This document shows, in pieces, positions 863 through 11,473 of a stretch of 14,718 nucleotides of DNA. Source of the DNA: a virus (taxonomy: Duplodnaviria > Heunggongvirae > Uroviricota > Caudoviricetes); the IMG/VR virus record IMGVR_UViG_2737471861_000012, positions 1 to 14,718 of that record; one strand, given 5' to 3'. Under the pieces are notes generated by a model. It was not told the origin of the DNA. It was given only the letters and a program-made list of their open reading frames with translations, and ran no database searches. Every line of letters starts with the position of its first letter. Position 1 is the stretch's first letter. Both the position numbers and the translations under genes were made by a program.

Positions 863-1555
863 TTAATTGTGTCGCTTAAGGGTTTGTGACTGGCTGATTA
901 AGACCTTTCCAAAGACCATAAACCGGTGTTCATTTTCGCTGGTAATTCCCCATTCACGGTAAATCTGGTTATCAGAAATCACCAGTAGTTTGTCAGGTAT
1001 CATTTGCAGTCGTTTGACATAAATTTTATCATCAAAACCAAATACATAGATACCATCTCCATCAAACTGATTGATACTGACATCAACGAAGATGAGATCT
1101 CCTGGCTCAATGGTTGGACACATACTGTCCCCACGAACGTTGATAACTTTAATGTGATTGGCTGGTCGTCCGCCAAACATCGATACAGCATTATCAGTTC
1201 TGTATTCAATGGCATGAATCACATCAATGACATCACCGCCCTGGATAAGGCCATTTCCCGCACTGGCACTGACATCCAGCATTTCAATACGGAATACATC
1301 CTTCACCTGCGCAATATCCTCACTAATACTGTTTTTACATACAGTATTACTTTTGAGGTCTGAGGTAAAGAGATCAGCAATATCAACACCTAAGCTCCTA
1401 GCAATATTACTCAGGGCTTGTTCAGTGAATTGTTTCTGCTTACCTGTTTCCAGGCGTGAGATATTCGCCGCATCCACTCCTATTGCTTCAGCGAGATCGG
1501 CGATTTTCATGTTCTTCGCTTGGCGAAGTTGTCTGACTCGATTTCCTATATTCAT
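863..1555 (-). CDS. cI: CI-like prophage repressor: N-terminal XRE-type HTH plus C-terminal S24 (LexA-like) autopeptidase domain
   Basis: 230-aa ORF. N-terminus IGNRVRQLRQAKNMKIADLAEAIGVDAANISRLETGK is an HTH_XRE pattern. C-terminal part has an Ala-Gly candidate cleavage site (SASAGNG), the GDSM serine motif and a VKRL lysine motif typical of LexA/cI S24 peptidases. Divergent to a cro-like gene. Confidence 0.9.
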   Translation of the reverse strand: MNIGNRVRQLRQAKNMKIADLAEAIGVDAANISRLETGKQKQFTEQALSNIARSLGVDIADLFTSDLKSNTVCKNSISEDIAQVKDVFRIEMLDVSASAGNGLIQGGDVIDVIHAIEYRTDNAVSMFGGRPANHIKVINVRGDSMCPTIEPGDLIFVDVSINQFDGDGIYVFGFDDKIYVKRLQMIPDKLLVISDNQIYREWGITSENEHRFMVFGKVLISQSQTLKRHN

Positions 1556-1652: not shown

Positions 1653-1913
1653 ATGCAATCACCATTACGGAATGTGCGTAAGGCGCACGGATTTACTTTG
1701 CAGCATGTTGCTGCGGGCGTTCAGGTCAATCCAGCGACGCTGAGTCGTATTGAAAGACTGGAACAAATTCCATCTATCGATCTTGCAGAACGTCTGGCCA
1801 ATTTTTTTAAGGGTGAAATCAGCGAAATGCAGATTCTTTATCCGGCACGTTTTCAATCTAGCCAAAACCAGAATGGGTTTAAACCACAGGAACAGGAGGT
1901 AAGCCGTGGGTAA
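1653..1913 (+). CDS. cro: Cro-like HTH regulator
   Basis: 86-aa ORF divergent from cI; HTH-like segment HGFTLQHVAAGVQVNPATLSRIER; GGAGG RBS 6-8 nt upstream of the ATG. Confidence 0.8.
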   Translation: MQSPLRNVRKAHGFTLQHVAAGVQVNPATLSRIERLEQIPSIDLAERLANFFKGEISEMQILYPARFQSSQNQNGFKPQEQEVSRG

Positions 1914-2457
1914 GCATCACTGGAAAGTGGAAAAACAACCTGACTGGTACGTGAAAGCTGTCAGAAAAACTATCGCGGCATTGCCAGGTGGTTACGCTGA
2001 AGCTGCTGAGTGGCTGGATGTAACAGAGAACGCTTTATTCAACCGCCTTCGTGCCGATGGTGATCAGTTTTTTCCGTTGGGATGGGCAATGGTTTTACAG
2101 CGTGCGGCTAGTACTCATCACATTGCGGATGCTGTCGCACAGTCTGCTGGTGGGGTGTTTGTATCACTTCCTGAAATTGAGGAAGTAGAGAACGCTGATA
2201 TCAACCAACGTCTACTGGAAGTCATTGAACAGATCGGGAGTTACTCAAAGCAGATTCGTTCGGCAATCGAAGATGGGGTAGTGGAGCCACATGAACAGAC
2301 AGCAATTAATGATGAGTTGTATCTGTCAATTTCGAAGCTCCAGGAGCATGCAGCACTGTTCTACAAAATCTTCTGCGCTTCAGAAAAGAGTGACGCCCGC
2401 GAGTGTGCAGCTCCGGGCGTCGTGGCGTTTTGTGTCCGTGGAGAAACTAACGCATGA
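1906..2457 (+). CDS. CII-like early regulatory protein (function putative)
   Basis: 183-aa ORF with GTG start at 1906, preceded by AGGAGG and overlapping the cro stop; it sits where cII-type regulators lie in lambdoid phages. Family assignment is from position and general resemblance only. Confidence 0.6.
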   Translation: MGKHHWKVEKQPDWYVKAVRKTIAALPGGYAEAAEWLDVTENALFNRLRADGDQFFPLGWAMVLQRAASTHHIADAVAQSAGGVFVSLPEIEEVENADINQRLLEVIEQIGSYSKQIRSAIEDGVVEPHEQTAINDELYLSISKLQEHAALFYKIFCASEKSDARECAAPGVVAFCVRGETNA

Positions 2458-2782
2458 ACAGTTTAACGGCAAATAACCGTTTGTCGCAACAGTTGGTGGT
2501 CAGTGTCGCTGCACACCTGTTGTTACGGCATGAATGCAGATTACCAAATCACCTGGCTGTAAGTAACCACAGAGAACTTTACCTGACTGTGGGGGGCGAG
2601 TTGTGCAGGAACTTAACCGCTGGTTTCGTGACGGAAGAGGACTTTATGTTCATGTTATTCGTTGGGAGCCAGAAACACAGCGCGTTATCTATCTTCGCAA
2701 AGACTACCCGCATGAGTGCTTTAGTCCTTTGTGGAAATTCAGGCGTGATTTTGTTGAGTGTGAAGGACCACCAGCACATTGA
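2454..2782 (+). pseudogene. Possible frameshifted small gene: ATG 2454 (frame 0, ATGA overlap with upstream stop) joined at a G6 tract (2591-2596) to a frame +2 ORF ending 2782
   Basis: The frame-0 ORF starts with the same ATGA coupling seen across this operon. A protein-like frame +2 ORF (VQELNRWFRDGRGLYVHVIRWEPETQRVIYLRKDYPHECFSPLWKFRRDFVECEGPPAH) begins right after a GGGGGG homopolymer. Combined length would be about 109 aa. Confidence 0.25.
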
Positions 2783-3056
2783 TTCTGCCATTCCGGGACG
2801 TTACACTGTTCAGGCACCTTATAAAGCGGGTGCCGGGATTGGCGTCCTGGAATTGCATACGGCGACAATGGGCGCGTTAGCGTCTTTTTTGTTGCTACAG
2901 CTCAGCTATACCCAAATTATGGTGGGCTGGGTGGGGGCACCGAAAGGTGCGCCGGTTTCCGTATGCGCCGGTTACGCCAACCCTGCTCAGTTCACCACCA
3001 GCGAAATTGGCGTTTCCGGTGGTGGAAGTTATCCATTGCATACGGAGGCTGCCATC

Positions 3057-3602
3057 ATGGCTACGATCCCAACCCTCACTCAACCTGAAATTGCCATCGT
3101 TGATGGTCAGGCTGTTACTTCATCCCTGGCTGTAGCCAACTTCTTTTCCAAACGTCATGACGATGTACTGAAAAAGATCCGCACGCTTGAATGCTCCGCA
3201 TCATTCACTGCCCGCAATTTTTCGGTGAGTGATTACACCGATTGCACAGGCCGCAAACTACCTTGCTATCAAATAACCCGCGACGGCTTTGCGTTTCTTG
3301 CTATGGGTTTCACGGGGAAACGTGCTGCCCAGTTCAAAGAGGCATACATCAATGCCTTTAACCAGATGGAGAAACAGCTTTTAAAGCCCTCTGTACCGAG
3401 CGACGTTGCACATAACGCCAGCGTTCTCTGTTCCTACATTTCATCAATTCATCAGGTCTGGCTGCAGCAGCTTTATCCTATGTTGGCAAAAGCCGAATCT
3501 CCGCTGGCTGTTAGCTTGTATGACTATATTAATGATGCTTCGGCACTGGCCTGCCTCATAAATTTGTCGCTGAACCCTTCAGAGGTAAGGGGGCGCAAAT
3601 GA
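3057..3602 (+). CDS. rha: Rha-family phage regulatory protein
   Basis: N-terminus MATIPTLTQPEIAIVDGQAVTSSLAVANFFSKRHDDVLKKIRTLE matches the Rha domain pattern; GGAGG RBS at about 3043-3047. The 382-aa ORF in the track (2454-3602) is judged an artefactual upstream extension in the same frame. Confidence 0.8.
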   Translation: MATIPTLTQPEIAIVDGQAVTSSLAVANFFSKRHDDVLKKIRTLECSASFTARNFSVSDYTDCTGRKLPCYQITRDGFAFLAMGFTGKRAAQFKEAYINAFNQMEKQLLKPSVPSDVAHNASVLCSYISSIHQVWLQQLYPMLAKAESPLAVSLYDYINDASALACLINLSLNPSEVRGRK

Positions 3603-3823
3603 TCCGGAATATTTTCAAACGGTTTACCAATCATACTTTCCGTTGTCCTCGTCCGGGTCAGTGGTACACCACGCCTGCAGGGCATGTTCTACGTGTTAGC
3701 CTGGTTGACCGTGAATGTCAGAAGGTGATTTGTGAACCGCTGGGCCGTAATTACCGCGTCAGTATGCCGCTTATAGCCTTTTGCTCCGGAAAAAACATGA
3801 AGCATCTCGGAGGTGCAGCATGA
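3599..3823 (+). CDS. Small hypothetical protein (74 aa, four Cys), translationally coupled
   Basis: ATG overlaps the Rha stop (ATGA) and its stop overlaps the next gene's start (ATGA); no family recognised. Confidence 0.45.
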   Translation: MIRNIFKRFTNHTFRCPRPGQWYTTPAGHVLRVSLVDRECQKVICEPLGRNYRVSMPLIAFCSGKNMKHLGGAA

Positions 3824-4638
3824 GTATGGAGCTGATGGTTAAAGCGATGAAAATTCGAGTGGGTAATCCATTGCGAAAACTGGTTCTGATCAAGCTGGCT
3901 GATAATGCCAGCGATCAGGGTGAGTGCTGGCCCAGCTACCAGCATATTGCTGACCAGTGCGAGATTAGCAAACGTTCTGTGATGAATCATATTGCGGCCC
4001 TTTGTGAGTCCGGGCTGGTAAAAAAAGTCACCCGGAAAGGTGAAAAAGGTAACTCAAGTAATATCTATCTCCTTCATCTGGATGGTGCAGGAGATTCACT
4101 AGGGGGTAGTGCAAATAATTCACTATCTGGTGCAGCAAATTCACCAGGTAGTGCAGGAGTTGCACCAGGGGGTGGTGCAGGAGATTCACCCAGAACCAGT
4201 CACTCTTTTGAACCAGTCAAAGAACCAGTCAATGAACCAATAGCTGTTGGTGCATCAGTTGATGAGTCCATGCGAGTTCGTTCAAACCGACCGGAATACT
4301 CTCCGGAGTTTGAGCAGGCATGGCTGGCATATCCCAAACGTGCTGGTGGCAATTCAAAATCTGCAGCCTTCAAAGCCTGGAAAGCCCGTTTGAATGAGGG
4401 GGTAAAACCCGAAACCATGCTGGAAGGTGTGAAACGCTACGCGGGCTGGGTATCTGCGATGGGTAACAGCGGCACACAATTTGTGAAACAGGCTGTCACG
4501 TTCTTTGGTCCGGATCGTCATTTCGAAGAATCCTGGGAAGTTCCTGCGGTATCTGCAGCCAGACGCGAGGACCCGTACTTCAAAGCCAGTTACGACAACG
4601 TGGACTACAGCCAGATCCCGGCAGGATTCAGGGGGTGA
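3820..4638 (+). CDS. O-like replication initiator: N-terminal winged-helix DNA-binding domain, Gly/Ser/Ala-rich linker encoded by iterons, C-terminal domain
   Basis: Start ATG 3820 with GGAGG upstream. N-terminal LRKLVLIKLADNASDQGECWPSYQHIADQCEISKRSVMNHIAALCESGLVKK resembles HTH_36-type phage replication initiator domains. An internal array of 5 iteron-like repeats lies in the linker-coding region, as in lambda O. Confidence 0.65.
   Translation: MSMELMVKAMKIRVGNPLRKLVLIKLADNASDQGECWPSYQHIADQCEISKRSVMNHIAALCESGLVKKVTRKGEKGNSSNIYLLHLDGAGDSLGGSANNSLSGAANSPGSAGVAPGGGAGDSPRTSHSFEPVKEPVNEPIAVGASVDESMRVRSNRPEYSPEFEQAWLAYPKRAGGNSKSAAFKAWKARLNEGVKPETMLEGVKRYAGWVSAMGNSGTQFVKQAVTFFGPDRHFEESWEVPAVSAARREDPYFKASYDNVDYSQIPAGFRG
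4085..4189. repeat. Iteron array (candidate origin of replication) inside the O-like gene
   Basis: Five copies of GTGCA-N5/6-T(T/G)CAC (gtgcaggagattcac 4085-4099, gtgcaaataattcac 4109-4123, gtgcagcaaattcac 4130-4144, gtgcaggagttgcac 4151-4165, gtgcaggagattcac 4175-4189) at 21-24 bp spacing, followed by three GAACCAGTCA repeats (about 4191-4235). Confidence 0.55.
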
Positions 4639-4640
4639 TT

Positions 4641-5129
4641 ATGAGTCTTTTGAATGAAGTTCAGAAATTCATTGAAGCCCATCCGGGGTGTACTTCCGGA
4701 GACATTGCGGATGCTTTTGCTGGTTACTCACGGCAGCGCGTTCTGCAGTCAGCAAGCAAGTTACGTCAGAGTGGGCGTGTGGCTCACCGTTGTGAAGGAG
4801 ATACACGCAGACATTTCCCGCGCCTGACTGAGAGAGCGCAGGAGCCGGAACCACAATCTGTTCGTGAAACCAGACCTGTGCGCAATTTCTATGTCGGCAC
4901 TAACGATCCCCGTGTGATTTTGTGCCTGACCCGCCAGGCTGAAGAACTGGAGTCCAGGGGCTTATACCGTCGTGCTGCAACGGTGTGGATGGCGGCATTC
5001 CGTGAAAGCCACTCCCAGCCAGAACGAAACAATTTTCTGGCGCGTCGTGAGCAGTGTTTACGGAAAAGCAGCAAGTGCGCTGTATCGGGTGATGAGTGGT
5101 ATCTGTCAGGGAATTACGTGGGGGCTTAA
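4641..5129 (+). CDS. PerC-family transcriptional regulator-like protein with N-terminal winged-helix-like extension
   Basis: Segment AEELESRGLYRRAATVWMAAFRESHSQPERNNFLARREQCLRK fits the PerC/Pch signature (LE..GLWRRAA..W ... RR..CL). Start ATG 4641, 3 nt after the previous stop. Confidence 0.55.
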   Translation: MSLLNEVQKFIEAHPGCTSGDIADAFAGYSRQRVLQSASKLRQSGRVAHRCEGDTRRHFPRLTERAQEPEPQSVRETRPVRNFYVGTNDPRVILCLTRQAEELESRGLYRRAATVWMAAFRESHSQPERNNFLARREQCLRKSSKCAVSGDEWYLSGNYVGA

Positions 5130-5455
5130 TGACGACGTTAACTCAATGCCAGCAGCAGGTGCTGGATATGCTGATTTCTTATCAGAAAGAACGTGGTTTC
5201 CCGCCAACCAATCAGGAGGTGGCAGCCATGCTGGGATACCGTTCGGTGAATGCAGCGGTGGAGCATCTTCGCGCACTGGAGAAAAAAGGCGTCATCACGA
5301 TAAAGCGTGGCGTGGCCCGGGGTATCACGTTTCATACCACAGTGAAGGACGACGACAGCGAGGCAGCCGGGATTATCCGCGCACTGCTTGCCGGTGAGGA
5401 AAACGCCAGACTGCGTGCAGCCCACTGGTTACATGAGAGGGGCCTGAAAGTATGA
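5129..5455 (+). CDS. LexA DNA-binding-domain-like protein (winged helix only, no peptidase domain)
   Basis: LTQCQQQVLDMLISYQKERGFPPTNQEVAAMLGYRSVNAAVEHLRALEKKGVITIKRGVARGI closely follows the LexA N-terminal domain pattern (PPT..E....G..S.NAA.EHL.AL..KG.I). ATG overlaps the previous stop (TAATG). No GDSM/KR peptidase motifs. Confidence 0.65.
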   Translation: MTTLTQCQQQVLDMLISYQKERGFPPTNQEVAAMLGYRSVNAAVEHLRALEKKGVITIKRGVARGITFHTTVKDDDSEAAGIIRALLAGEENARLRAAHWLHERGLKV

Positions 5456-7655: not shown

Positions 7656-7672
7656 TTTTGTGGAGAAAGTTG

Positions 7673-8035
7673 ATGCGTGATATTCAGATGGTTCTGGATC
7701 GTTGGGGTGCATGGGCGGCGAGTGATAGTTCTGGGGTAGACTATTCGCCTATAGCTGCTGGGTTTAAAGGGCTTCTTCCCTATACAAGCAAAACACGTCA
7801 GGCTTGTTCAGATAGTGATGCATTAATTATTGAAGGTTGTCTTGCTCGTCTAAAGCAAAAAAGACCTGAAGAACACTCGCTTCTTGTTGCCCATTACCTA
7901 TACGGTATCTCTAAAAGAAAGCTCGCTAAAGCTCGCAAAAAGGATGAGAAAATAATACGCATTGAGATACAGATGGCTGAGGGATTTATAGAAGGTTGTC
8001 TAGCTATTCTAAATGTTAGCTTAGATATGGATTAA
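7673..8035 (+). CDS. Q-like late-gene antiterminator (small Q family of the QuuD / phage 82 type)
   Basis: MRDIQMVLDRWGAWAA...AGFKGL...IIEGCLARLK...AEGFIEGCLAILNVSLDMD matches the small Q antiterminator pattern; GGAGAAAG RBS. The 3-prime two-thirds of the gene is AT-rich like the downstream cargo. Confidence 0.75.
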   Translation: MRDIQMVLDRWGAWAASDSSGVDYSPIAAGFKGLLPYTSKTRQACSDSDALIIEGCLARLKQKRPEEHSLLVAHYLYGISKRKLAKARKKDEKIIRIEIQMAEGFIEGCLAILNVSLDMD

Positions 8036-8078: not shown

Positions 8079-8531
8079 TTATATGTGGGGTAATATCCAG
8101 TTTATTTTCCTCCAGGTACTTGCAAATGAAACTATTGATACGATCAGGGTCGAGAAACCATATAAGGTTAGGGCGAAATCAAGTCTTACAGAGGTAATGG
8201 TGATTTTTTCATTTATAAACATTGCTATCAGCGGGAAAATACATGCTAATATTAAGGTAACTCCCGTAGATAACAGGTTATGAATAATTTTAGGTAAAAT
8301 CTTGTTTTGTTTTAAAGCAAAAATAATTCCATCAGTACTTGAACTTGCAGAACTGAAGATGGAAATAGCGGCCAATACAAAACCAAACAAAATGCCTGCC
8401 ACCGTAGATAACACTCCGGCTGTACTTAAGATATCAGAGTGAGCCATAGGCGCTAGGTATTTCCCAAGCACCCAAGCTAACAGCCCACTGATAACTATGT
8501 TAATTAAAACTTTAATAAGCATAATCATCAT
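8079..8531 (-). CDS. Small integral membrane protein, four predicted TM helices; second gene of the AT-rich cassette (RexB-like architecture, hypothesis)
   Basis: 147-150 aa with four hydrophobic segments (IKVLINIVISGLLAWVLGKYL; ILSTAGVLSTVAGILFGFVLAAISIF; LSTGVTLILACIFPLIAMFI; LDFALTLYGFSTLIVSIVSFA). Likely start is the ATG at 8520-8522, preceded by AAGGA, 14 nt downstream of the partner gene. AT-rich codon usage unlike the flanking genes. Confidence 0.7.
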   Translation of the reverse strand: MMIMLIKVLINIVISGLLAWVLGKYLAPMAHSDILSTAGVLSTVAGILFGFVLAAISIFSSASSSTDGIIFALKQNKILPKIIHNLLSTGVTLILACIFPLIAMFINEKITITSVRLDFALTLYGFSTLIVSIVSFASTWRKINWILPHI

Positions 8532-8545
8532 CCTTAAAAATAAGA

Positions 8546-9478
8546 TCAGATTTCATATTGCTTTAAATACTGACCATGTTCAATTTTAGCACTGATCAAG
8601 GCAGTACGCACATCTGTTTCTTTTGCGTAGCCATCTTTTGTGTTAATGTTTTTTTCACTGATCAGAACTTGATTGAGAAGACTCCTTGAATGAGTATTTT
8701 TAGGTTCAGTGACATTAGCTTTACGTAATAAGTGAGGAACTTTTTCTATTAATTCCTTTATTCCACTTTTTACTTCATCACTGAGATAACCACGGATTAA
8801 TTTACGTTGCGATGCTCTACCTCTAAGTGATAGTTTTAAATGCGAACCGCCCATCCCAGCCATCATTTCAATCATACTTTTGGAAAATGAATTCGAAAGG
8901 TCATAATCCGTTGCGCTAAAATTACGTGGAGCGGCGAGTGTAATTTCACAGCTACGTAAAGTGCTTCCTGTTTCAAGTAGTTCTTTTACACTTTCTTTTT
9001 TCCAAATTGCCTCAAACGCTACAGGTTTGTTTTCTTCAGAAAAATTGAATAAAAGAAATGCTAAATCGGAAACTTTAGGTCCTAAATGATTTTGAGATAA
9101 AACAAGAATGTCTTTCTTATAGTAGTAAATAAAATAAGTACGTTCGACTATATATTTTTTATCATCTAACGGAATATTGTGCTCATCCCAATTTTCATCA
9201 CCAATATAAGGTAAGTGGAAACCATCACGAGAGCATGATAGATAACCAAAATAGAACTCCGCCTGTGCGTCTTTTTCTAAGAATACAATCTTTAATTTTT
9301 TCTTATCAAACTCAGCGGTATAAGAATTTTGCGAAGGTGTAACAATGGTTGTATACATGTTGTCAAATGCAAGTTGTGCATTTGATGTAGTTGACTTCGT
9401 TCCTGAGGAGCTTTGGAAGAAACCGATACGCATTTTTTTTTGTTTAGTTAGTGGCGCGGAAGTGGCTGTAGTAGTCAT
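8546..9478 (-). CDS. Hypothetical soluble ~310-aa protein; first gene of the AT-rich two-gene cassette (candidate abortive-infection / exclusion component, RexA-like by architecture only)
   Basis: Long minus-strand ORF with an AAGGG RBS-like sequence upstream; Lys/Tyr/Asn-rich and AT-rich; no nucleotidyltransferase, HEPN or TIR motif recognisable by eye. Opposite orientation to all flanking phage genes. Confidence 0.7.
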   Translation of the reverse strand: MTTTATSAPLTKQKKMRIGFFQSSSGTKSTTSNAQLAFDNMYTTIVTPSQNSYTAEFDKKKLKIVFLEKDAQAEFYFGYLSCSRDGFHLPYIGDENWDEHNIPLDDKKYIVERTYFIYYYKKDILVLSQNHLGPKVSDLAFLLFNFSEENKPVAFEAIWKKESVKELLETGSTLRSCEITLAAPRNFSATDYDLSNSFSKSMIEMMAGMGGSHLKLSLRGRASQRKLIRGYLSDEVKSGIKELIEKVPHLLRKANVTEPKNTHSRSLLNQVLISEKNINTKDGYAKETDVRTALISAKIEHGQYLKQYEI

Positions 9479-10132: not shown

Positions 10133-11179
10133 ATGAAAAATACTGTAAAAATAAACAGTGTTGATTTAATCAACGCTGATTGCCTGCATTTTATTCAGTC
10201 CCTGCCTGATGATTCCATTGACCTGATTGTTACCGATCCGCCGTACTTCAAGGTGAAACCCAACGGCTGGGACAATCAGTGGAAAGGGGACGAAGATTAC
10301 CTTAAGTGGCTGGACCACTGTCTGGCCCAGTTCTGGCGGGTGTTAAAACCTGCCGGAAGCCTTTACCTGTTCTGTGGTCATCGCCTGGCATCTGATACCG
10401 AAATCATGATGCGTGAACGCTTTAATGTACTGAACCACATTATCTGGGCGAAGCCGTCCGGACGCTGGAACGGGTGCAACAAGGAAAGCCTGCGGGCGTA
10501 TTTCCCGGCAACAGAACGCATTCTGTTTGCCGAACATTATCAGGGGCCATATCAGCCAAAAAATGACGGCTATGCGGCAAAAGGGCGCGAGCTTAAGCAG
10601 CACGTAATGGCCCCGCTGATTGCTTACTTTCGTGATGCGCGTGAATCACTGGGGATAACGTCAAAACAGATAGCAGAAGCCACCGGAAAGAAAAACATGG
10701 CTTCGCACTGGTTTGGTACCAGTCAGTGGCAGTTACCGAATGAGGCCGATTACAGTAAACTGCAGGCGTTGTTTGCGCGTGTTGCGGCAGAAAAACACCA
10801 GCGCGGTGAACTGGAGCAGCCACACCACCAGCTGGTCAGCACATACAGCGAACTGAACCGGCAATATGCCAGCCTGCTGGAGGAATACAAATCACTGCGG
10901 CGTTATTTTTCCGTATCGGCTGTTGTTCCTTATACGGATGTCTGGACGCACAAGCCCGTGCAGTTTTATCCGGGTAAGCATCCCTGTGAAAAACCGGCGG
11001 ATATGTTGCGTCAGATAATTACTGCCAGCAGCCGTCCGGGCGATTTGGTCGCAGATTTTTTTATGGGGTCGGGGTCGACAATAAAAGCGGCACTGTCGCT
11101 GGGACGCAGGGCGATTGGCGTGGAACTGGAAGAGGAGCGTTTTAATCAGACGGTCAGAGAAATAACGAAAGATTTTTAA
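10133..11179 (+). CDS. Orphan DNA methyltransferase (beta-class N6-adenine or N4-cytosine)
   Basis: DPPY catalytic motif (LIVTDPPYF) is N-terminal and the FxGxG SAM-binding motif (FFMGSGST) is C-terminal; no adjacent restriction endonuclease gene. Confidence 0.85.
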   Translation: MKNTVKINSVDLINADCLHFIQSLPDDSIDLIVTDPPYFKVKPNGWDNQWKGDEDYLKWLDHCLAQFWRVLKPAGSLYLFCGHRLASDTEIMMRERFNVLNHIIWAKPSGRWNGCNKESLRAYFPATERILFAEHYQGPYQPKNDGYAAKGRELKQHVMAPLIAYFRDARESLGITSKQIAEATGKKNMASHWFGTSQWQLPNEADYSKLQALFARVAAEKHQRGELEQPHHQLVSTYSELNRQYASLLEEYKSLRRYFSVSAVVPYTDVWTHKPVQFYPGKHPCEKPADMLRQIITASSRPGDLVADFFMGSGSTIKAALSLGRRAIGVELEEERFNQTVREITKDF

Positions 11180-11396: not shown

Positions 11397-11473
11397 GCGG
11401 GTATCGTATAATGGCTATTACCTCAGCTTTCCAGGCTGATGATGTGGGTTCGATTCCCGCCACCCGCTCTCCA
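11397..11473 (+). tRNA. tRNA-Gly(UCC)-like gene
   Basis: Cloverleaf can be drawn: acceptor GCGGGTA/CACCCGC (one A-C mismatch at 7-66), D-arm GTAT-AATGGCTA-TTAC, anticodon stem TCAGC/GCTGA with loop TTTCCAG (anticodon TCC), T-arm GTGGG-TTCGATT-CCCGC. Very similar to my recollection of E. coli glyT, with a compensatory 6-67 base-pair change. 3-prime end reads TCTCCA rather than TCCA. Confidence 0.65.

Follow-up and report, generated by a model that had tools for sequence, protein, structure and literature searches.

YfdN, an early-operon protein of lambdoid phages, joins a predicted winged helix to a partial PerC-family core

PerC, encoded in the perABC operon of the EPEC plasmid pEAF, and the Pch proteins of EHEC are single-domain proteins of 89-104 aa. 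PerC and PchABC activate LEE1 (PMC4764244, PMC5931665), and PchA, PchB and PchC activate ler at least 4-fold, while PchE has a less than 2-fold effect and PchD none (PMC5931665). Pch relieves silencing by H-NS, StpA and Hha and is reported to bind DNA, and H-NS was not co-precipitated with PchA (PMC4764244). The activities of the wider family are varied: PchE is a repressor of curli and raises flagellar expression (PMC6265319, PMC7369912), and EcCIMP1_025, a PerC-like protein encoded by a PICI, represses LEE1 (PMC11773190). A second group of small regulators, the ANR family (Aar, Rnr, Cnr), consists of three-helix proteins that bind AraC-family regulators and carry the signature A-x3-E-x7-A-x3-W-x2-A...R-x3-C (A10, E14, A22, W26, A29...R47, C51; PMC4983702); regulation of H-NS by ANR has also been reported (PMC10148876).

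The gene studied here lies in a window of 14,718 nucleotides (the whole stretch of viral DNA analysed) that covers the immunity, early and lysis functions of a lambdoid phage (Table 1). That the gene is a phage orthologue of yfdN from E. coli K-12 is near certain, and so is the architecture of its product. The protein is 95% identical over its full length to K-12 YfdN (b2357), which is encoded by the cryptic prophage CPS-53/KpLE1, 98% identical to gp44 of phage mEp460, 95-97% identical to SfV orf40 and to the SfII, SfIV (gp42) and Stx2c-phage copies, and 67% identical to Sb43 of ST64B. PHROG 1324 ('transcriptional activator') matches residues 1-161, the full length, with E=3.9e-77, and the window gene shares with this orthologous group both the two-domain match from end to end and the position after an O-like initiator. 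Of 5426 complete E. coli genomes, 2668 carry a homologue of at least 80% identity, LEE-negative K-12 among them. K-12 YfdN and the phage orthologues have similar neighbours, with yfdO/rep upstream and a methylase or LexA-like gene downstream. In mEp460 and SfV a dam gene separates yfdN from the LexA-like gene, whereas the window lacks that dam; apart from this, the window gene shows no substantive difference from its K-12, mEp460 and SfV orthologues. In lambdoid phages of the SfV/ST64B/mEp460 type, yfdN is a conserved accessory gene located in the early-right (pR) operon. In PGAP/RefSeq it already bears the name 'yfdN: PerC family transcriptional regulator', and public annotation covers this widespread prophage early gene together with its family label and its distribution.

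Table 1. Features of the window and of the YfdN protein, with coordinates in the window
Feature	Position	Strand	Description
S24 repressor	863-1555	-	
cro	1653-1913		
CII/CP76	1906-2457		
Ash/Rha	2454-3602		
74-aa ORF	between Ash/Rha and initiator		
O-like/DnaD-like replication initiator (rep)	3820-4638	+	272 aa; Pfam HTH_36/DnaD_N; PHROG 270, E=9.5e-88
Initiator C-terminal tail …IPxGFRG	4563-4638		elsewhere at L004 10986 and L016 878, and in L008, L012, L019, L021, L022 and L025
Shine-Dalgarno AGGGGG of yfdN	4630-4635	+	5 nt 5' of ATG; sequence read directly
yfdN-type CDS	4641-5129	+	162 aa plus stop; RefSeq product PerC family transcriptional regulator
YfdN winged helix, residues 1-60	4641-4820	+	predicted; H1 3-13, H2 19-25, H3 31-44, beta-hairpin wing 47-60; pI 9.4
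YfdN linker, residues 61-89	4821-4907	+	pLDDT 55-56 for residues 61-80
YfdN PerC/ANR-type core, residues 90-145	4908-5075	+	helices 90-105, 109-122, 126-143; pI 10.7; PF06069, AF2
YfdN acidic tail, residues 146-162	5076-5126	+	ends W-Y-L-S-G-N-Y-V-G; low model confidence
LexA DNA-binding-domain-only protein	5129-5455	+	108 aa; Pfam PF01726, E=3.4e-19; PHROG 362
RusA, KilA-N, DUF968/HNH	between LexA-like gene and Q, in that order		
Q	7658-8035		
AT-rich reverse-strand pair, DNA methylase, tRNA-Gly, holins, GH108 endolysin	beyond Q, in that order		

The reading frame runs for 162 codons from ATG 4641 to the TAA at 5127-5129. Its Shine-Dalgarno sequence is embedded in the final R-G codons of rep, whose stop codon TGA (4636-4638) lies 2 nt ahead of the ATG, and at its other end the yfdN stop and the start of the LexA-like gene overlap as TAATG at 5129. 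RefSeq often places the start at GTG 4635 (164 aa), but ATG 4641 is the better choice because GTG 4635 abuts the Shine-Dalgarno sequence. Homologues of 140-165 aa remain full-length down to about 25% identity, and the window allele differs from K-12 yfdN by 10 synonymous and 8 non-synonymous codons, a pattern of conservation that marks yfdN as a real gene under constraint. It is probably dispensable as well, judging from two phage sequences in which it has been lost or disrupted: in phage cdtI (L018 3501-3578) a natural deletion has removed codons 27-162, leaving codons 1-26, so that rep runs into dam, and in Stx2a_WGPS2 (AP012537.1) the gene is interrupted by IS629.

The original prediction assigned this gene to the PerC family on the strength of a signature, GL-RRAA--W...RR--CL, in the C-terminal half, and proposed a comparison with the family profile. 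That assignment holds: Pfam PF06069 (PerC) matches residues 98-151 with 38.9 bits (E=1.1e-9), above its gathering threshold of 22.6, and the signature is plain in an alignment of the window protein with EPEC PerC (pMAR2) and Sakai PchA, PchD and PchE, in which 11 columns are invariant (A100, L103, E104, G107, R110, R111, A112, W116, R129, R136 and C139). Identity over the core is 30% to PerC, 32% to PchA, 23% to PchD and, the highest of the four, 35% to PchE. The match is a partial one, however. It covers positions 5-58 of the 90 in the model, whereas PerC (143 bits), PchA (149), PchD (124) and PchE (153) span positions 1-89 or 6-89, and the C-terminal 35-50 or so residues of PerC/Pch, about one third of the protein, have no counterpart in YfdN. 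In YfdN-type proteins that are more distant, the match is again to the first ~50 positions, with 21-38 bits. What YfdN has in common with PerC and with PchA/B/C, which are prophage morons in EHEC, is thus a core of about 45-50 residues, which in YfdN is accompanied by a winged helix of 60 residues, a linker and a tail motif of its own. PchD and PchE, with their full-length profile matches of 124-153 bits, and the PICI protein EcCIMP1_025 are likewise single-domain proteins of ~90 aa without a winged helix; at 162 aa YfdN is not the small protein of ~90-105 aa that PerC is. By its sequence, YfdN belongs to the PerC family at the level of this domain and no further.

An N-terminal winged-helix-like extension that minimal PerC proteins lack had also been proposed, and the structural model bears this out. 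All four of PerC, PchA, PchD and PchE begin near residue 94 of YfdN, and AlphaFold2, run on a 32-sequence alignment, gave a model with a mean pLDDT of 86.8 and values above 95 in both domains; a run with a 9-sequence alignment returned the same topology. The predicted N-terminus has the H1-H2-H3 order followed by a beta-hairpin wing seen in MarR/BlaI/ArsR-like winged helices. Its H3-wing region carries the strong basic charge that contact with DNA would call for, and we consider it a putative DNA-binding surface, although the top structural matches of this domain include some protein-binding winged helices. Residues 61-89 are probably a flexible linker, according to the model, and the end of this segment, NFYVGTNDP, is conserved among close homologues. 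Two fold searches with the C-terminal module gave no informative match. The tail beyond it has the family consensus LAGxYxG, which is absent from PerC/Pch. The two-domain architecture (140-165 aa) is kept down to ~25% identity.

The ~50-residue core matched by the PerC profile is also common to the ANR anti-activators, as far as the sequence signature goes. On the NCBIfam ANR model NF033650, YfdN scores 22.5 bits, its relative P0147 29.3, PerC 18.2 and PchE 17.9, all below the cut-off of 32; the below-threshold YfdN match covers positions 5-51 of 54. A100, E104, A112, W116 and A119 of YfdN fall in register with the ANR signature, R135 and C139 are displaced by 2 residues but preserve the R-x3-C spacing, and ANR residue W43 has no equivalent. 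The C-terminal module is modelled by AF2 as three helices (Table 1), as in the ANR family; like the winged helix, it is basic. ANR proteins are small and stand-alone (the model has 54 positions) and occur alongside AraC-family partners, whereas in YfdN the module is fused to a winged helix.

We infer that yfdN is transcribed as part of the early-right operon, where the original prediction had placed it. The gene is read in the same direction as the genes packed closely around it between cro and Q, and rep adjoins it directly upstream in a translationally coupled arrangement. A scan against consensus sequences turned up no promoter-like site closer than ~700 nt to yfdN, and none resembling a + strand terminator between 3300 and 7000, a span that includes the stretch from rep to the nin-like genes. 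Packed in this way between the initiator and the LexA-like gene, yfdN should be made early after infection or induction.

This neighbourhood recurs in distant relatives. We surveyed the contigs of 9 diverged two-domain YfdN relatives with 24-47% identity. An O-like initiator lies directly 5' of the yfdN-like gene in seven of them, and four of these initiators, when scanned, fell into different PHROG families. In 5/9 one of the next two genes downstream is a LexA_DNA_bind-only gene, sometimes with a Dam, MT-A70 or D12 methylase gene in between. The two exceptions have the gene just upstream of Q in one case and after RecT in the other. No P, DnaC-like or DnaB-like gene was found in the early operons of these diverged relatives. 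Since both the two-domain architecture and the initiator/LexA-like synteny persist, yfdN is a phage-intrinsic, syntenic core early gene and not a virulence moron of the pchA type. Carriage on mobile elements is common to all these genes, perC being on a plasmid, the pch genes on prophages and yfdN on phage, but the settings differ. pchA of Sakai Sp4 is a moron that lies on the reverse strand of the late region, pchD adjoins ibrAB in SpLE1, and perC sits in its plasmid operon, whereas yfdN is an early-operon core gene. pchE of Sakai Sp7 lies 3' of primase and SSB genes and so, like yfdN, follows replication genes. Sp7 (L007 1-15172) is a 15-kb island with integrase, primase, SSB, major head, protease, portal and terminase genes and pchE; its gene content resembles that of a capsid-encoding PICI, and the PICI literature lists it as O-island 51/EcCIEDL933 (PMC11773190). 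In PICIs, too, the PerC-like gene comes after the replication genes.

The initiator itself carries several features of separate interest. Direct repeats resembling iterons (GTGCAGGAGATTCAC with variants, at intervals of 24-42 nt) lie at 4085-4189 inside the gene and, by analogy with lambda O, are probably the phage origin. A mosaic junction is visible at ~4563. Only from there on, beginning with the last ~75 nt of rep, do SfIV, SfII, Kati, SKA5 and other phages reach 96% nucleotide identity or more to the window; the body of their initiator is another one (30% identical as protein), and in SfIV, SfII and Kati it is the yfdN allele of the window that stands behind it. The C-terminal tail encoded past this junction, …(D)xVDYxxIPxGFRG, is common to otherwise very different initiators (16-32% identity), its final R-G codons doubling as the Shine-Dalgarno sequence of the next gene, and it probably serves as a peptide on which a replication factor of the host docks. 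We considered whether it might be a docking motif specific to YfdN and rejected this: the tail also ends ECs_1073 of Sakai Sp4, which is followed by a DnaC-like gene, and a 400-aa protein of L016 that lies away from the yfdN-like gene of that sequence. In two rare chimeric proteins (P0027 and P0107) the N-terminal HTH_36 winged helix of an initiator is fused in frame with YfdN, the junction falling within or just after YfdN's own winged helix. The sequences suggest that these chimeras are deletions between structurally equivalent domains of adjacent genes.

Elsewhere in the window, the 108-aa LexA-like protein encoded downstream of yfdN is without an S24 peptidase domain. Exact CTGT-N8-ACAG palindromes resembling LexA boxes occur three times (1329-1344, 2557-2572 and 10143-10158) against 0.17 expected, a count reached in 0 of 200 shuffles, and one of them falls at the position where the gene for the 348-aa DNA methylase has its start codon. 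The protein could, from these features, be a non-cleavable LexA mimic acting on the LexA-box-like sites. Just past Q, an AT-rich island on the reverse strand (8079-9478, 34-38% GC) holds two genes, one for a 149-aa protein with no family match and one for a 309-aa DUF6731 protein; PADLOC reported no match for them, and the island looks like moron or defence cargo. A tRNA-Gly (TCC) gene at 11397-11469 on the + strand lies between the DNA methylase and holin genes, and a close relative (L001) has tRNA-Ile and tRNA-Arg genes in the same slot.

The interpretation we prefer, to which we give a probability of about 0.5, is that YfdN is an early phage DNA-binding regulator with a PerC/ANR-type module for protein interaction or anti-silencing. 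The basic winged helix would hold YfdN on DNA, its PerC/ANR module would act to remodel a complex of nucleoid proteins or of a regulator, and the outcome would be a tuning of phage gene transcription with collateral effects on AT-rich host genes. A role of this kind for the C-terminal core is suggested by analogy with Pch, which relieves silencing, and with the ANR proteins, which bind AraC-type regulators and for which an action on H-NS is reported. The failure of H-NS to co-precipitate with PchA implies that the PerC core may not contact H-NS directly. Scans of the window for repeats and promoters gave nothing attributable to YfdN as an operator for its winged helix, and PADLOC found no defence-system match for the protein.

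Other readings of the same evidence have to be weighed. The original prediction was that a prophage with a PerC/Pch homologue, a type of protein that acts through ler, could modulate its host; in that reading YfdN would be a PerC/Pch-type activator switching on ler/LEE1 or other host virulence promoters upon early-operon expression. The significant PF06069 match with every signature residue kept, and the LEE1 activation established for PerC and PchABC (PMC4764244, PMC5931665), speak for this, as does the ler::lacZ reporter of Uhlich et al., which is a K-12 ΔyfdN strain (PMC5931665); the removal of yfdN suggests that the gene was seen as a possible confounder. Yet the part of the family that YfdN matches ends before the C-terminal third of PerC/Pch, and even a full-length match is no guarantee of activity, since PchD and PchE affect ler barely or not at all and the PICI PerC-like protein represses LEE1. 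Against it, too, are the position of yfdN in the core of the early operon and not in that of a moron, its presence in about half of E. coli genomes, among them a K-12 that has no LEE, and the score of the matched core on the ANR model, about as good as that of PerC itself (22.5 vs 18.2 bits). In published work only PerC and PchABC activate ler, and YfdN appears to resemble them in core sequence alone; the literature we found mentions YfdN incidentally or at the level of screens (glycogen over-expression, a table of expression in response to NO, a region of a filamentation library and a cluster in a predicted interactome), with no functional study and no test on ler. We therefore regard LEE activation by YfdN, with its partial profile match, the varied activities of its family, its carriage by K-12 and its deletion or IS disruption in two sequenced phages, as unsupported and improbable. 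Somewhat less doubtful, though still unlikely in our estimate, is an ANR-like anti-activator whose C-terminal module sequesters a regulator by protein-protein contact, the candidate targets being an AraC-family protein, H-NS or the phage's own CII, Q or LexA-like protein; the winged helix would then serve as a second protein-binding or dimerisation domain and not as a DNA binder. The shared signature is tempered here by ANR scores that all stay under the cut-off, by a Pfam scan in which none of 21 window ORFs had an AraC-type domain, and by an H3-wing that is strongly basic, as for DNA contact.

The conserved place of the gene raises the further idea that YfdN is a replication accessory which occupies the slot of lambda P or a DnaC-like or DnaB-like protein and helps to recruit the host helicase to the phage origin. 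Its translational coupling to the initiator directly before it, the seven diverged relatives with the same order, the want of any helicase or loader gene in those early operons and the co-transfer of the last ~75 nt of rep across the mosaic junction would all fit. But phage cdtI is without a loader gene even though it has lost yfdN, an IS element interrupts the gene in Stx2a_WGPS2, and in two relatives it stands away from rep, before Q or after RecT. Moreover, the IPxGFRG tail is not specific to YfdN-linked initiators (Sakai Sp4 ECs_1073 has it too), YfdN matches no ATPase or helicase-binding family, and rep has a DnaD-like, loader-type C-terminal region of its own. We consider this the most remote of the explanations, very improbable on present evidence. 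A broader proposal, which we advance tentatively and would not yet back, is that YfdN-type proteins are a distinct class with a phage-intrinsic job, of which the small PerC, Pch and ANR virulence regulators would be stand-alone relatives captured as morons and on plasmids. The class would be defined by a winged helix, a PerC/ANR core and a WxLxGxYxG tail, fixed in the early operon of one lambdoid lineage beside a replication initiator and a non-cleavable LexA-DNA-binding-domain protein, and its job might be targeted anti-silencing, for example, or a link that ties early replication to transcription at later stages or to the SOS control of the host. Taking these considerations together with the preferred reading of YfdN as an early DNA-binding regulator, the protein is probably a regulator of phage development or an anti-silencer, and not a dedicated LEE activator.

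For annotation our analysis changes little, because yfdN is already labelled in RefSeq and PHROGs, and the original prediction amounts in essence to the RefSeq name with a correct observation on the added domain. The partial extent of the PerC match, the ANR-like core and the rep-yfdN-LexA-like synteny were absent from the literature we found, and we present them as refinements rather than discoveries. The label 'PerC family transcriptional regulator' nevertheless promises too much for a protein that has the PerC/ANR core in another architecture and another genomic role, and yfdN should not be counted as a LEE virulence activator when prophages are scored for pathogenic potential. Working out the function of YfdN would explain a gene found in roughly half of E. 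coli genomes, and it could show what the PerC/ANR module does for phages.
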